Below are positions 9,423 through 60,591 of a DNA stretch of 64,000 bases, piece after piece; position 1 is the first letter of the stretch; every line of letters starts with the position of its first letter. The position numbers and the translations under genes were made by a program. This DNA comes from Candidatus Nanohalarchaeota archaeon (lineage in GTDB: Archaea > Nanohalarchaeota > Nanosalinia > Nanosalinales > Nanosalinaceae). The stretch covers positions 32,001 to 96,000 of the forward strand of contig JALDAJ010000001.1 of NCBI GenBank assembly GCA_022729235.1. Reading direction: 5' to 3'. The notes under the pieces are model-generated. The model was not told the origin of the DNA. It ran no database searches and was given only the letters and a program-made list of their open reading frames with translations.

Positions 9423-9553
9423 TGCGGCGTCGGGGATTTGAACCCCGGTTACGACCATGGCAAGGTCGTGTCTTAGCCACTCCAAAACGTCGGAGACGTT
9501 TTGTGCGAAGCTTGAACTCCGCACAGGAGCTTTAGCCACTGGACCAACGCCGC
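9423..9553 (-). tRNA. tRNA-Gly(GCC) with non-canonical D-loop intron (about 9474-9530)
   Basis: acceptor GCGGCGT/ACGCCGC, anticodon arm CGACC-TTGCCAT-GGTCG, T-loop TTCAAAT; 57-59 nt structured insert in the D-loop. Confidence 0.88.
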
Positions 9554-9603
9554 ATCTCATAGAGATGCTGGGAGCTGAAAACTCGTAAGAGTTTTCAACA
9601 CCG

Positions 9604-9663
9604 CGCAACTGCTGTCAGTTGCATCAACAGAAGCCACATTCGCTGGCGCGAAGTAGCTTTCAG
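9604..9663 (-). ncRNA. tRNA-associated two-hairpin module upstream of tRNA-Gly
   Basis: CTGA-stem-CTGTTGAT-GCAACTG ACAG CAGTTGC-G; homologous to 59898-59952. Confidence 0.6.
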
Positions 9664-9751
9664 GATAACATGTTGTTTTGAGATTGTTAGTTTCTTAAAT
9701 AGCTCGGGAGGGTGTGCAAGAAATTAAAGGTTGGGCAGGCATCCTGTTAGT

Positions 9752-10192
9752 ATGATGGATGAAGAAGAGTTCGAGGATTATCTTGTGGACAAGGCAAAGG
9801 AGATCCTTAACGAGGATATAACGGAATCTGAAGAGGTTGAACCAGAAACACCTCAGAAAGAAGATGTAGTCGATGAAGACGTCAAGGACAAGTCAGCAGG
9901 AAACATACCGTTTTCCTGGGACCCAAGAGAAGTAGAGCATCTCACCCGTAACAGGAAGAAGATGTCTAATGAAGACCTGAAGAAGTTCTTCGAGCGGGAT
10001 AGCGAGTTCCAGGAAAAATTGCAGGAAGTCGACAACTGGAAGGGTTTCACGCGCTGGGAAGAAAGATTGATGGTACAGCAACACTCCGTCAAGACCCCTG
10101 AGGAAATTGCCATGGATCTCGACCGGGATAAAAAAGAGGTGGAACTAAAAATGCATATGATGGGTTTGATCCCGAAAGATGAGCTACGATAA
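9752..10192 (+). CDS. hypothetical protein with two Myb/SANT-like HTH repeats
   Basis: WDPREVEHL and FTRWEERLM...EEIAMDLDR repeats; overlaps the nop5 start. Confidence 0.7.
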   Translation: MMDEEEFEDYLVDKAKEILNEDITESEEVEPETPQKEDVVDEDVKDKSAGNIPFSWDPREVEHLTRNRKKMSNEDLKKFFERDSEFQEKLQEVDNWKGFTRWEERLMVQQHSVKTPEEIAMDLDRDKKEVELKMHMMGLIPKDELR

Positions 10193-10922
10193 AAGGGATG
10201 AGGCGCTTGAAAGAGCGCGCGAAGAGTTATCCACGATCGACCGAGATAGACTTGTTGCGAAGGCAGTCATGCAACTTGAACAGGCAGAAAAGAATTTACG
10301 GGAGGAGATGGAGCGTTTCCGTGACTGGTATAGCCTGCACTTTCCTGAACTGGTTGACGAGGTAGAAGACAATGAGAAACTCGTGGAAATCCTGTCAGAA
10401 AACGCGGACCGGGACGAGCTTGACGCGTTCAGTTCGCTGGCGGAAAAAAGTAAAGGTGCAGACCTAAAAGAGGAAGACCTTGAGATAATAGAAGAAGTAG
10501 CCGAGAAACTTGAGAAAGACTTCGACTACCGGGAAAGCCTCGAAGAATACGTATTGGACGTGTGCGAGGAAGAGATGCCTAACCTTTCACAACTGCTTGA
10601 GCCTCTACTCGCCGCGAAACTTGTCGCGCTGGCAGGAAGCCTTGAAGACCTCGCGAAGAGCCCGGCGTCAACCATCCAGATGCTTGGTGCGGAGAAAGCC
10701 CTGTTCCGCTACCTCGGCGGGGAAGGAACTCCTCCGAAGCACGGCGTGCTGTTCGAGCACAGGTTCGTCCGCTCGCTCCCTGAAGGCGAGCGCGGGAAGA
10801 TGGCACGTTTCCTCGCAAATAAAGCTGCGATGGCGGCGAGACTCGACCAGTACGGGGACAAGCAGAAAGGCGGCGAACTCAGAAACGAGGCGCAGGAAAC
10901 GTATCAGGAGCTTAAAGGATAA
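10179..10922 (+). CDS. nop5: box C/D RNP protein Nop5 (short form)
   Basis: WYSLHFPEL, PASTIQMLGAEKALF and PKHG motifs. Confidence 0.95.
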   Translation: MSYDKRDEALERAREELSTIDRDRLVAKAVMQLEQAEKNLREEMERFRDWYSLHFPELVDEVEDNEKLVEILSENADRDELDAFSSLAEKSKGADLKEEDLEIIEEVAEKLEKDFDYRESLEEYVLDVCEEEMPNLSQLLEPLLAAKLVALAGSLEDLAKSPASTIQMLGAEKALFRYLGGEGTPPKHGVLFEHRFVRSLPEGERGKMARFLANKAAMAARLDQYGDKQKGGELRNEAQETYQELKG

Positions 10923-10955
10923 GCAATGAAATAGTTTGTCGACTGTAACTTGGGT

Positions 10956-11606
10956 ATGCAGCAGATCCAGACAGGTATCTTCAGGGAAAACAACAGACTC
11001 TATACAAGAAACGCTGTCCCTGGAGAAGACGTTTATGGGGAGAAACTTGTAGAAAGAAACGGCGAGGAGTACAGAGAATGGATGCCCGGCCGCTCAAAGG
11101 CAGGCGCTGCAGTTTTGAAAGGAGTTAACCTGGAGCTGGAGCCAGGGCATGAGGTGCTGTACCTCGGTGCTGCCTCAGGGACTACTGTTTCCCACTTCTC
11201 GGATATACTCACAGACGGGTTCCTGGTAGCGGTGGAGTACTCGCAGGATGTAGCTAAGAAACTCGTGAAACTGGCGGAGGACAGAGATAATATAGCTCCT
11301 ATAATCGGTGATGCGAGAAAGCCTAGAGAGTACAGCGACTTCGTAGAGCAAGCAGATATAGTGTACCAAGATATATCCCAGAAAGATCAGGCAGAGATAT
11401 TCAAGAAGAACTGCGATCGGTACCTGAAAGAAGACGGAACAGGGTTAATCGCGGTTAAGGCACAGTCAGTCTCATCAACGAGAGACCCAGTAGAAGTCTT
11501 CGAGGAGGTAAAGAATAAGCTTAGACAGAGGTTCGAGGTAGTTGAAGAAACAACACTGGAACCTCACGAGAAAGACCACCTCTTCCTGAAGCTGGAAAAG
11601 AAATAA
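10956..11606 (+). CDS. flpA: fibrillarin-like rRNA/tRNA 2'-O-methyltransferase
   Basis: VYGE, VLYLGAASGTTVSH and QDISQ motifs. Confidence 0.96.
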   Translation: MQQIQTGIFRENNRLYTRNAVPGEDVYGEKLVERNGEEYREWMPGRSKAGAAVLKGVNLELEPGHEVLYLGAASGTTVSHFSDILTDGFLVAVEYSQDVAKKLVKLAEDRDNIAPIIGDARKPREYSDFVEQADIVYQDISQKDQAEIFKKNCDRYLKEDGTGLIAVKAQSVSSTRDPVEVFEEVKNKLRQRFEVVEETTLEPHEKDHLFLKLEKK

Positions 11607-29626: not shown

Positions 29627-29998
29627 TTATTCTTCTTTTTCCAGGAGTTCAGCTGATTTTTGGGCGATATCTTCGACATCGTTTTCTGCAGATCCGCTCG
29701 CAGTTATCGCGATCGCGGCTGATTGAACTCCGATACCTGCAGCAAGACCTAGTTCCTCTCTTTCAGGTACAAATGTGTACGGGATGTCTCGTTCCTCACA
29801 GAGCGCAGGGATGTGCATCACGATTTCTTCGGGAGAAACATCGCTGGCGATAACAACCAGTTCTGCCTCGTTCCTCTCAATCGCCTTGGTAACTTCGTTG
29901 GTTCCGATAACTACTTTTCCGGAACCTTCTGCTTCTTCAACTGTGTCGTAGGTTTTTTCTGCTAGTGATTCTCCTGGTTCAAATTTTTGGTAAGCCAT
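29627..29998 (-). CDS. rpl7ae: ribosomal protein L7Ae
   Basis: GTNEVTKAIER and IASDVSPEEIV motifs; ATG at 29998. Confidence 0.96.
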   Translation of the reverse strand: MAYQKFEPGESLAEKTYDTVEEAEGSGKVVIGTNEVTKAIERNEAELVVIASDVSPEEIVMHIPALCEERDIPYTFVPEREELGLAAGIGVQSAAIAITASGSAENDVEDIAQKSAELLEKEE

Positions 29999-59897: not shown

Positions 59898-59952
59898 CTG
59901 AAGTGCGTTCGTCTTACGAACGTGCTATGTTGATGAAACTGACAGCAGTTTC
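59898..59952 (+). ncRNA. tRNA-associated two-hairpin module abutting the tRNA-Val 5' end
   Basis: homologous to 60232-60286 and to 9604-9663 (- strand). Confidence 0.6.
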
Positions 59953-60051: not shown

Positions 60052-60328
60052 GGGAAGGTAGCTCAGGTGGTAAGAGCGCTGCGCTCATAACAACTTTATG
60101 AGCGATGAGGGTCACTGTCTCGCCATGCGTGACAGTTCGAGAAGATCACATCGTTCTTTAAAGAACGATGTTCAAACACCGTTTCCCGAAAACGGTGTGT
60201 CTCTGATCTTCGACCCGATGATTAAAACATCTTGAAGTGCGTTCGCTTTGCGAACGTGCTATGGTGATCGAACTTCCAGAAGTTCGTGAGATACGCAGAG
60301 GTCGCGGGTTCGAGTCCCGCCCTTCCCA
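60052..60328 (+). tRNA. tRNA(CAT), probably elongator Met, with 203-nt intron at 37/38 (60090-60292)
   Basis: acceptor GGGAAGG/CCTTCCC; BHB with CTCA/TGAG helix and TAA/ATA bulges; CTGCG/CGCAG anticodon stem. Confidence 0.9.
60090..60292 (+). ncRNA. intron-encoded box C/D-like guide RNA (predicted target C34)
   Basis: guide TTATGAGCG followed by ATGA, with stem GGGTC/GACCC and ATGATTA. Confidence 0.7.
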
Positions 60329-60591
60329 TTTCTGCTTCCGAAATATTCGGAAGGAGATAGAGAAAATCTTTGATTTTCGAATGTATAGTCAGCGTGGTCG
60401 AGAAGCATCCGGGTTCGGATGCGTTCGTTCCCAACCTATAAACCATTCAGTTTGTAATCCAGTCCGCCCTTTCACCTGTTTTTCAAGAGATAACCTCTTC
60501 AGACTTATACAATATCCGGAAAATTCTTGAGCGCGCCATTTCTCGCTAAGTACAAATAATGTTATTAAATATTGGTATCCAATAAACCATC

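Follow-up and report, generated by a model that had tools for sequence, protein, structure and literature searches.

The elongator tRNA-Met gene of a Nanohaloarchaeota genome (Candidatus Nanohalarchaeota archaeon, here G000) carries a 203-nt intron that we consider, on balance, likely to be a self-targeting box C/D-type guide RNA built on a single kink-turn (K-turn). The guide is probably for methylation of the wobble nucleotide C34 of its own tRNA, and the intron would be the ortholog of the tRNA-Met intron RNA of Nanoarchaeum equitans. The gene, read from the sequence, occupies 60052–60328 of the 64,000-nt stretch of contig JALDAJ010000001.1 that we analyzed (the window), and all RNA features described below are on its + strand.

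With its intron search switched on, ARAGORN called a tRNA-Met(cat) and gave it an intron of 203 nt at gene position 39, i(39,203), which places the intron at 60090–60292. Without the intron search ARAGORN missed the gene, as did Rfam, and a search of the intron against Rfam returned nothing at the gathering cut-off or at E ≤ 10. The intron sits at the canonical 37/38 position, between a 5′ exon comprising nt 1–37 (60052–60089, with C34 at 60086) and a 3′ exon comprising nt 38–73 (60293–60328). G000 has only two CAT tRNAs, the second of which looks like the initiator; a tRNA-Ile(UAU) is present, and a TiaS domain was not found in G000 by a search that was positive in four of four archaeal control genomes. 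The gene at 60052–60328 is the sole elongator tRNA-Met of this genome.

Close to its 5′ end, the intron contains TTATGAGCG (60096–60104), the exact reverse complement of 60082–60090, which spans tRNA nt 30–37 and the first intron base. The two strands are paired in the minimum-free-energy fold. This 9-nt guide lies directly 5′ of a D′ box, AUGA (60105–60108), and its fifth nucleotide, G60100, which is also the fifth base upstream of the box, is opposite C34 in the 9-bp helix. The D′ box forms the non-bulged strand of a candidate K-turn and runs into the 5′ strand (GGGTC, 60109–60113) of a Watson–Crick C stem, P1. The 3′ strand of P1 (GACCC, 60212–60216) leads into the bulge and C′ box (60217–60224), a G followed by AUGAUUA (ATGATTA at 60218–60224). 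In this arrangement, the bulge is G60217 A60218 U60219, the sheared GA of the C′ box (60220–60221) faces the GA at 60107–60108, and U60222 faces U60106. L7Ae should bind this predicted K-turn. Taken by itself, the 12-nt motif is weak evidence: the window has one match where 0.26 would be expected, and at least one match turns up in 20 of 100 shuffles. The genome holds 16 RTGAGCNNTGA sites in all, and none of the others, among those inspected, is followed by a K-turn.

To judge conservation, we used 27 orthologous precursors, from G000 and 26 relatives in five families of its order, which were collected by similarity and not by pattern. Their introns span about 40 to 291 nt. All 27 keep the guide, the NTGA box directly after it (with A in 17 and C in 10), the following G, the stem and a [GAT]ATGAT[TC] C′ box, and all 27 hold the N+5 register on C34. 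The initial annotation had read the intron as a box C/D-like guide for its own C34 with a stem-closed K-turn; every sequence feature that it listed is present, and both parts of the reading agree with the conserved module and register and with the covarying C stem described below, which point to the same putative structure. Its proposal that the departures from the canonical boxes are compensatory, with a U–A pair replacing G–C, stands in part. Among the phylum precursors, an A at D′ position 1 faces U in 17 of 17 cases, but a C there faces C in 10 of 10. Across the 97 parsed loci, the next position past the sheared GA is U·U in 59, and the base pair beside the U·U pair is standard in only 54 and non-standard in 43. 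Because variants such as AATGATT and TATGAC are seen among the C′ boxes, we take the second GA of the box as the conserved one.

Alignment of orthologous introns, a check suggested by the initial annotation, revealed strong covariation of the stem and a guide that tracks its target. Over 48 sequences, 94.5% of cells are paired compared with 78.4% in shuffles, and the covariation score is 0.330 compared with 0.115, a value that none of 500 shuffles reached. All six modeled pairs of the C stem show double changes, with 99.5% of cells paired, and tRNA nt 31 covaries with guide nt 2 (G–C in 31 sequences, A–U in 15); these pair counts come from an alignment fitted to the model, in which related sequences are non-independent observations. 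Across the phylum, model R1 has a match in 48 of 70 genomes; among those of high quality the figure is 25 of 28.

We also scanned public genomes beyond the phylum with a pattern limited to the exon, the guide and NTGA. The matches listed include tRNA-Met loci of Micrarchaeota, Aenigmatarchaeota, Woesearchaeota, Hadesarchaea, Marsarchaeota and Nanoarchaeota, including N. equitans. Although the stem, bulge and GA were outside the search pattern, 71 of the 79 archaeal loci among the matches listed have a stem, a 3-nt bulge and GA after the D′ box, compared with 8.4 expected from shuffles; the other eight have long hairpins or K-loop forms. The predicted guide and K-turn design is thus common to many archaeal phyla.

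Folding of the precursor is far better than that of its shuffles (z = −7.0; 0 of 200 as good), and the guide helix is part of the minimum-free-energy fold in 23 of the 27 precursors. Splicing calls for a different structure. In the bulge–helix–bulge (BHB) fold, the 3′ strand of a hairpin at 60269–60286 supplies the intron-side outer helix (h′), and UGAG pairs with C32–A35 in the central helix and is followed by the 3-nt bulge AUA (60287–60293 together), inside which lies the 3′ splice site (60292/60293). Intron UGAG and the guide both claim the anticodon, and a precursor in the guide fold cannot be in the splicing fold at the same time, as the initial annotation had anticipated. When both conformers were folded, the guide fold was the lower in energy, with the BHB fold costing 3.9 kcal/mol more in G000 and 4–10 kcal/mol more in six relatives.

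These observations suggest a sequence of events. In the precursor, tRNA-Met nt 30–38 and the intron guide would form the 9-bp hairpin, while AUGA, the closed stem and AUGAUUA would fold into one K-turn able to bind L7Ae and then Nop5–fibrillarin. The 2′-OH of C34, five pairs from the D′ box, would thereby be placed in the methyltransferase site. Methylation most likely takes place on the precursor, given the greater stability of the guide fold, and the precursor would then have to refold into the BHB form for splicing. Some features weigh against this account. The intron has a single K-turn, and efficient archaeal methylation in vitro was reported to need paired C/D and C′/D′ RNPs spaced by about 12 nt; the guide–target duplex is short, and the pair beside the U·U is often non-standard.

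The same module, aimed at C34, is present in G000's tRNA-Trp intron and in the tRNA-Trp introns of eight of nine relatives. The G000 tRNA-Trp intron has one box pair and one guide, and its guide sequence differs from that of tRNA-Met. The guide hairpin looks like an anticodon arm: of 80 such loci, 35 received another anticodon label from ARAGORN, the known N. equitans gene among them. Of 21 sequencing runs that matched the genome, one was an RNA run (0.04 of words), and it covered tRNA-Val only. Apparent joints in one DNA run proved to be contigs of relatives with other introns and were left out of the analysis.

Much of the length of the G000 intron lies outside the conserved module. The loop of the C stem holds an inserted hairpin, P2 (60114–60136), and a GA–hairpin–GA module, P3 (60139–60213), with inner hairpins at 60150–60169 and 60177–60197. 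P2 recurs in loci L002 and L003 and in G000's tRNA-Trp intron and is missing from most orthologs; a copy of the P3 module, 84–85% identical, lies in another tRNA intron (G000:C1:285385-285462), and relatives have simpler forms. Downstream of the C′ box is the element that the initial annotation took for a second D/C pair (60232–60267), which consists of UUGA (TTGA, 60232–60235), a 10-bp hairpin, a 5-nt linker and GA, with ATGGTGA at 60261–60267. It is 89% identical over 36 nt to 59899–59934, upstream of tRNA-Val, where the leader repeat (59898–59951, +) comprises CUGA, a hairpin, UGAUGA and a second hairpin abutting the tRNA; further copies exist, and the repeat is found in the 5′ leaders of tRNA-Val, tRNA-Ser and tRNA-Gly. 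The hairpin at 60269–60286 is the second hairpin of the same repeat. By these comparisons, both the second D/C-like element and the predicted nested hairpins, roughly 100 nt long, are lineage-specific inserts made up of modules with further copies in G000. We looked for targets of two other putative guides and treated what we found as chance: the stretch upstream of CUGA 59898 has a single 12-nt match (about 0.2 expected by our own estimate), which falls in a hairpin belonging to this family of repeats, and the stretch upstream of UUGA 60232 has 10-mer matches only.

The second element is also what gives substance to a reading of the intron as a circularly permuted double box C/D RNA, functional only once the excised intron has circularized and brought a C box and a second K-turn upstream of the guide, as the initial annotation had proposed. 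There are precedents for such a route. Excised archaeal tRNA introns circularize, and the circular tRNA-Trp intron of Haloferax volcanii can guide methylation (PMC3326292); in N. equitans, one C/D sRNA is permuted and occurs in circular form (PMC3491384). The anatomy of the G000 intron nevertheless makes permutation very unlikely. The order D–stem–C is the ordinary order of an internal C′/D′ motif and, as the K-turn has a hairpin to close it, no circularization or joint is required to account for that order; K-turn and guide keep the same relation in linear or circular RNA. Only 6 nt (60090–60095) precede the guide, and they contain no terminal C box (RUGAUGA) to accompany a D box (CUGA), while the GUGA(G) at the 3′ end of the intron is a BHB strand and not a D box, being AAGAG or AAGGG in relatives. 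A terminal C/D pair is found neither in the 27 phylum precursors nor in the minimal 40–66-nt introns of other lineages, which are too small to hold a second element. The second element itself is a copy of the tRNA-leader repeat, with a bulge or linker of 5 nt in place of the 3 nt of the K-turn; by our reading of the precursors, a look-alike occurs in five of the 27 introns and none occurs in the other 22. The element begins 7 nt after the C′ box, and the G000 intron has no second K-turn at the canonical distance of about 12 nt. Finally, in its predicted ground state the precursor adopts the cis hairpin.

A related question is whether the guide serves the molecule that carries it. The excised intron, linear or circular, might instead act in trans, as the H. 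volcanii tRNA-Trp intron does, and methylate other pre-tRNA-Met molecules or mature tRNA-Met. The tRNA-Trp mechanism was first proposed to act in cis and turned out to act in trans (PMC7994747; PMC3326292), and the intron of N. equitans builds up as a stable RNA (PMC3491384). We consider trans action unlikely here. The guide–target duplex is short, 9 bp in G000 and 7–10 bp in 95 of 100 loci, and guide and target are separated by loops of 3–10 nt in 89 of 100 loci, which favors an intramolecular helix; mature tRNA-Met of G000 would, moreover, need C30 and G31 of its anticodon stem opened.

The protein partners bear on whether methylation occurs at all. Nop5 (10179–10922, +; 247 aa; Pfam Nop, E = 2.4e-53), fibrillarin (10950–11606, +) and L7Ae (29684–29956, −), which the initial annotation had placed in the window, were all found there above Pfam cut-offs, and G000 also encodes a canonical double-guide sRNA (G000:C1:564924). 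The Nop5 of G000 aligns to residues 118/122–376 of solved Nop5 chains; the N-terminal domain of about 120 residues that tethers fibrillarin is absent from it and from the Nop5 of its family. We judged this truncation by alignment to solved chains because the NOP5NT Pfam model, which has no match in G000 and none above cut-off in control genomes either, is uninformative. With this domain missing, canonical RNP assembly is not assured. The conserved ORF upstream of nop5 was considered as a detached Nop5 N-terminal domain. Its predicted structure is all-helical over residues 65–143 (mean pLDDT 72.8; 83–93 per 10-residue block over residues 61–140), but it has no Pfam family, its protein atlas leads are weak (0.84), and comparison with PDB folds gave nothing at E ≤ 0.001, with weak rows of HTH, GerE or Myb types; on this modeling, we ruled the candidate out.

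Such a truncated Nop5 would suit a device that does not methylate, in which the anticodon-masking hairpin and an L7Ae-bound K-turn act in folding or quality control and might bar the precursor from translation, time splicing or stabilize the intron. GA–hairpin–GA K-turn-like modules without a guide are common in the other introns and trailers of G000, and the competition between the guide and BHB folds fits the same idea. Still, a device of this kind seems rather improbable to us, given the spacing of the D′ box that puts exactly C34 at N+5 in 27 precursors found by similarity, the same register in tRNA-Trp with a different guide sequence, the standing of C34 in both tRNAs as a known box C/D target in other archaea (PMC7994747; PMC6601515), and a fibrillarin gene kept beside nop5 (72% mean column identity over 14 sequences).

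A self-targeting guide with one K-turn is also the reading that best relates the intron to known systems. Box C/D RNPs make Cm34 of elongator tRNA-Met in archaea and humans, as reported in PMC6601515, and the closest likeness is the tRNA-Met intron RNA of N. equitans, a stable RNA described with a box D and a box C, which the initial annotation had named as a precedent and which is indeed on record (Randau 2012, Genome Biol 13:R63; PMC3491384). It comes from the same tRNA and the same 37/38 position as the G000 intron. The N. equitans locus (L114) follows the order of G000, from exon through short loop, guide complementary to the anticodon loop, D box, short closed stem and GAUGAU-type C box to an extra hairpin and a UGAG preceding the 3′ splice site. 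In length and boxes the two differ: the intron of N. equitans has 66 nt, CUGA and GAUGAUC, and that of G000 has 203 nt, AUGA and GAUGAUU. In the published alignment the N. equitans C box begins earlier, by one GAU repeat, than in the register backed by cross-phylum variants, and passages of that report describing the intron RNA name no target and do not mention a single-K-turn layout (PMC3491384). Our search of the open literature found only the N. equitans report on this intron class; the breadth of the class may therefore not be in print.

Other relatives differ in instructive ways. The euryarchaeal tRNA-Trp intron C/D RNA of Haloferax and Pyrococcus is likewise encoded by the intron of the tRNA whose Cm34 it guides, with mutually exclusive methylation and splicing folds, and it circularizes; it has a complete C/D and C′/D′ set with guides for nt 34 and nt 39, whereas the G000 intron has the D′-guide half only (PMC7994747; PMC3326292). 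N. equitans sRNA24 shares with G000 a box D upstream of box C in the gene, but it contains two box pairs and its circular form has been demonstrated, in contrast to the single hairpin-closed pair of G000 (PMC3491384). H. volcanii sR-tMet and human SNORD97/SCARNA97 have the same C34 target in elongator tRNA-Met, but as stand-alone trans guides, whereas the G000 guide lies inside the intron of its target (PMC6601515; PMC6601510). The G000 intron would also be a natural, cis-linked form of a known design. Engineered 'half-mer' box C/D RNAs, with one K-turn and one guide, are laboratory constructs that pair into two-RNA particles. An unusual C′/D′ motif is also a feature of H. volcanii sR-tMet.

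We extend this comparison only tentatively, and regard the extension as possible but doubtful as a whole: the intron may form a natural 'half-mer' C/D particle that acts solely in cis, methylates before splicing and represents an older, minimal form, with the guide hairpin as the ground state and refolding into the splicing substrate possible only once C34 is methylated. The one-K-turn design occurs in tRNA-Met and tRNA-Trp and in at least six archaeal phyla and may therefore be the older, minimal form; as the Nop5 of this family lacks the fibrillarin-binding domain, the particle that carries out the design there would be non-canonical.

Box C/D guides are usually pictured as trans-acting RNAs with two K-turns. 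There is a class in which one K-turn and a short guide would reside in the intron of the target itself, and to it the window contributes a well-supported member. The class is conserved from Nanohaloarchaeota to Hadesarchaea and in Nanohaloarchaeota also appears to serve tRNA-Trp. For annotation, the mimicry of the anticodon arm by the guide hairpin is relevant to the mislabeling of such genes by ARAGORN. The class also opens two old questions to testing in simple systems: whether one K-turn may suffice in vivo, and whether tRNA introns may owe their persistence to the modification guide that they carry.

The tRNA-Met gene read from the sequence at 60052–60328 (+) was missed by both Rfam and the default mode of ARAGORN; with its intron search, ARAGORN calls a tRNA-Met(cat) and places a 203-nt intron at gene position 39 (60090–60292, +). 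The 5′ exon ends in the anticodon loop CUCAUA, with C34 at 60086. Within the intron, the guide TTATGAGCG (60096–60104, +) is the exact reverse complement of 60082–60090 and is directly followed by a D′ box, ATGA (60105–08, +), a K-turn stem with complementary strands GGGTC (60109–13, +) and GACCC (60212–16, +) and a C′ box read as ATGATTA (60218–24, +), which together make one predicted K-turn. The duplex has 9 bp and a 5-nt loop, and the fifth guide base back from ATGA, G60100, pairs with 60086, which makes C34 the N+5 target. The sequence bears out the boxes, guide, K-turn stem and coordinates of the initial annotation and its claim that the guide is aimed at its own C34; Nop5, fibrillarin and L7Ae are all found in the window, as it had stated. 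The minimum-free-energy fold of the precursor, at −116.5 kcal/mol, includes the guide:target helix; none of 200 shuffles folds as well (z = −7.0).

By sequence, this tRNA would be the elongator tRNA-Met rather than tRNA-Ile2, because the second of the two CAT tRNAs in its genome (G000, a single contig, C1, of 1.03 Mb) resembles an initiator (G000:C1:614996–615073), an intron-bearing tRNA-Ile(UAU) is present, and no TiaS domain was found in G000 by a search that detects TiaS in 4 of 4 archaeal control genomes. Given the last two observations, AUA is probably read by a UAU anticodon and not by an agmatidine-modified CAU. ARAGORN finds 35 tRNAs in this genome, 20 with introns. A common 5′ intron module (CCUCAAGUUCUC, a loop and GAGAACGAGGAC) occurs in at least seven (Gln, Leu-UAA, Arg-UCU, Arg-GCG, Thr-CGU, Lys and Arg-UCG), suggesting the spread of a single intron family. 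The ARAGORN start of tRNA-Gly(GCC) (window 9424–9560, −) falls inside an apparently longer gene, with a better acceptor and 5′ part of the D-arm ~60 nt upstream, suggestive of a D-arm intron.

Of 41 related genomes searched at the DNA level, 34 gave a match, including 20 of the 22 high-quality ones. Among 30 fetched loci, 27 contained both exons (G000 and 26 relatives, from five families of one order); L016, a repeat copy with no tRNA, and L020 and L027, each with a single exon found, were left out. All 27 precursors keep the guide and boxes in the same order: CUCAUA, a loop of 5–37 nt, U[AG]UGAG[CU], one base, [AC]UGA, G, a variable hairpin and [GAU]AUGAU[UC]. Conservation in orthologous introns, which the initial annotation had set as its own test, is thus complete in this set, across intron lengths (precursor minus the 75-nt mature tRNA) of roughly 40–291 nt. 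Five short members were used to build a covariance model, which is weak on members with long inserts; it matches 48 of 70 genomes of the phylum, Nanohaloarchaeota, and 25 of 28 high-quality ones. In six relatives (L004–L006, L013, L015 and L021), the K-turn hairpin loop UUCUGGA is by eye complementary to the spacer UCCAGAA after the C′ box, the two sequences trading places in L004; this may reflect long-range pairing or a pseudoknot.

Beyond the phylum, we scanned species-representative genomes with the pattern AGAGC, 6 free bases, CTCATA, a gap, TRTGAG, 3 free bases and TGA, which matched at least 120 stretches. The 80 matches listed comprise 79 archaeal loci and one bacterial chance match, with record titles naming Micrarchaeota, Aenigmatarchaeota, Woesearchaeota, Nanoarchaeota, Nanohaloarchaea, Hadesarchaea, Marsarchaeota and two 'Methanosarcinales' bins; the Nanoarchaeota listed include N. 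equitans Kin4-M (locus L114). With its intron search, ARAGORN places an intron-bearing tRNA over 67 of these 80, labelled tRNA(cat) in 32 and otherwise in 35, and makes no call in 13. Since the known N. equitans gene is among those 35, the gene finder is evidently misled by the guide hairpin. The pattern left the sequence after the D′ box free; 71 of the 79 archaeal matches listed continue, within 60 nt of that box, with a stem of 2 bp or more, then a 3-nt bulge and (U)GA, against 8.4 expected from shuffles, and the other eight have long hairpins or a loop replacing the stem, then GAUGAU.

Both the stem and the guide covary, as the initial annotation had proposed to check. In 48 sequences aligned to the model, an alignment that is fitted to the model and whose related sequences are not independent, standard pairs fill 94.5% of cells as against 78.4% in shuffles, and the covariation score is 0.330 as against 0.115 (reached by none of 500 shuffles). 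When the partners are shifted by 1–3 columns, pairing falls to 26–45%. In the K-turn stem of the same set, each of the six pairs has changed in both partners, and 99.5% of cells pair. Nucleotide 31 of the tRNA covaries with the second guide base (G-C 31, A-U 15, G-U 1 and U-A 1), an independent sign because the scan pattern left that base unfixed; the guide:target helix thus appears to be under selection. Across 100 distinct loci, the duplex spans 6–13 bp (7 bp in 32, 8 bp in 23, 9 bp in 24 and 10 bp in 16).

The C′ variants AAUGAUU, UAUGAUC and UAUGAC retain the second GA alone; the K-turn therefore consists of the stem, a 3-nt bulge (G/A/U, A, U) and GA, which puts ATGATTA in the right register. 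The pair beside U.U is U-A in G000, and A faces U in 17 of 17 phylum members with A, so the box change described as compensatory is so within this lineage. It is not a class rule: the pair is standard in 54 and non-standard in 43 of 97 parsed loci, C facing C in 10 of 10 phylum members with CUGA and likewise in N. equitans, and a canonical G-C in Hadesarchaea.

The initial annotation explained the D-before-C order by circular permutation. N. equitans does have a permuted, circular RNA, sRNA24 (Randau 2012, PMC3491384). The order in this intron is, however, exactly that of the internal motif of a box C/D RNA, in which D′ is followed by a loop or stem and then C′; in the 27 precursors, the guide is never preceded by a C box, nor does a D box lie close to the 3′ end, and introns of about 40–66 nt (the relative L029, Micrarchaeota and N. 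equitans) leave no room for a second motif. Permutation is neither needed nor supported. The UGAG conserved ahead of the 3′ splice site forms the BHB (bulge-helix-bulge) strand that pairs with C32–A35; in some relatives it reads AGAG or AGGG. The second D/C-like pair (TTGA 60232–35 and ATGGTGA 60261–67, +) is present in the sequence, yet it lies in a repeat copy, has a 5-nt linker where the K-turn has 3 nt, starts 7 nt after the C′ box and has a look-alike in only 5 of 27 introns read by eye. We rejected it as part of the conserved device; it is an insertion.

That two-hairpin repeat (a D-like box, a hairpin, NUGKU-GA-U(G/C) and a second hairpin) occupies 60232–60286 (+) in the intron and recurs just upstream of tRNA-Val (59898–59951, +; 89% identity over 36 nt), upstream of tRNA-Ser(CGA) (G000:C1:700688–700710, −), in the leader of tRNA-Gly (window about 9607–9665, −) and before non-tRNA sequence in a sister genome (L016:1501–1557, −). 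Its hairpins show compensatory changes between copies, and it may act as a signal for processing or for L7Ae binding. The nested hairpins singled out by the initial annotation are present but are inserts with copies in relatives and other introns: the two inner ones have an 84–85% identical copy in another tRNA intron, and P2 (60114–60136, within the K-turn stem loop) and a simple GA-hairpin-GA module also occur in some relatives and in the G000 tRNA-Trp intron. The module's consensus (GAGAARAYC, a loop and GRUYUUCGA) has 33 regex sites in G000; modules lie inside the tRNA-Met intron (60139–60213, +) and ~30 nt downstream of the gene (60356–60376, +), and six sites fall within introns of tRNAs called by ARAGORN, often directly ahead of the BHB 3′ strand. 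The module could be a K-turn with the hairpin as a non-canonical stem.

In 23 of the 27 precursors, the minimum-free-energy fold contains the guide helix. A fold forced to form the anticodon stem and BHB central helix is less stable by 3.9 kcal/mol in G000 and by 4–10 kcal/mol in six relatives. The forced G000 fold is predicted to have a 5-bp anticodon stem, a central helix of 60084–87 with 60287–90 plus one extra U.G pair, a 6-bp outer helix (60092–97 with 60279–84) and a 3-nt bulge on each strand, one at 60291–93. It opens the guide hairpin and hairpin 2; the conflict between modifying and splicing is therefore real for the predicted structure, and the order of the two steps is one that we infer.

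A tRNA-Trp outside the window (G000:C1:921928–922103, −) has a 102-nt intron with a guide for its own anticodon loop, C34 again at N+5, followed by AUGA, a hairpin and GAUGAUUAA. Eight of nine secondary model matches fetched from relatives are tRNA-Trp introns of this layout (L189, L190 and L192–L197), and these single-K-turn introns, in G000 and the eight relatives, contain no terminal C/D boxes or second guide. Because tRNA-Trp introns share the layout, the single-K-turn form is the phylum's general type of intron guide; in Euryarchaeota, by contrast, the tRNA-Trp intron has both box pairs. The sole convincing strict-regex match to a canonical double-guide box C/D sRNA in G000 (G000:C1:564924–564985, +) reads AUGAUGA, 10 nt, CUGA, a hairpin, AUGAUGA, 12 nt and CUGA.

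Nop5 (10179–10922, +; 247 aa) aligns to residues 118/122–376 of solved Nop5 chains and therefore lacks the N-terminal, fibrillarin-holding domain of about 120 residues. Nop5 open frames in its own family, f1, are nearly all about 248–284 aa (3 of 47 listed are longer stop-to-stop frames); those of two sister families are 299–362 aa plus one of 687 aa, and the three inspected start with the N-terminal domain. The predicted f1 architecture is Prp31-like, with the domain kept in sister families. An ORF directly adjoins nop5 upstream (9731–10192, +), and a conserved 140–200-aa ORF holds this position in 47 of 50 f1 genomes. It matched no Pfam family; its N-terminus is acidic and its C-terminal half helical. 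We rejected it as the missing Nop5 domain, to which it bears no resemblance.

Our literature search found no publication on the wide spread of this guide form. In both Haloferax and humans, box C/D RNPs make the Cm34 of elongator tRNA-Met (PMC6601515; PMC6601510). The Nanoarchaeum precedent named in the initial annotation is published: the tRNA-Met intron of N. equitans is described as a stable, abundant 66-nt RNA with box D and box C (Randau 2012, PMC3491384), and it has the same guide pattern as the 203-nt intron of G000. Judged by its sequence, the tRNA-Met intron element appears to be a real, conserved, self-targeting K-turn guide that would join the class first seen in N. equitans.
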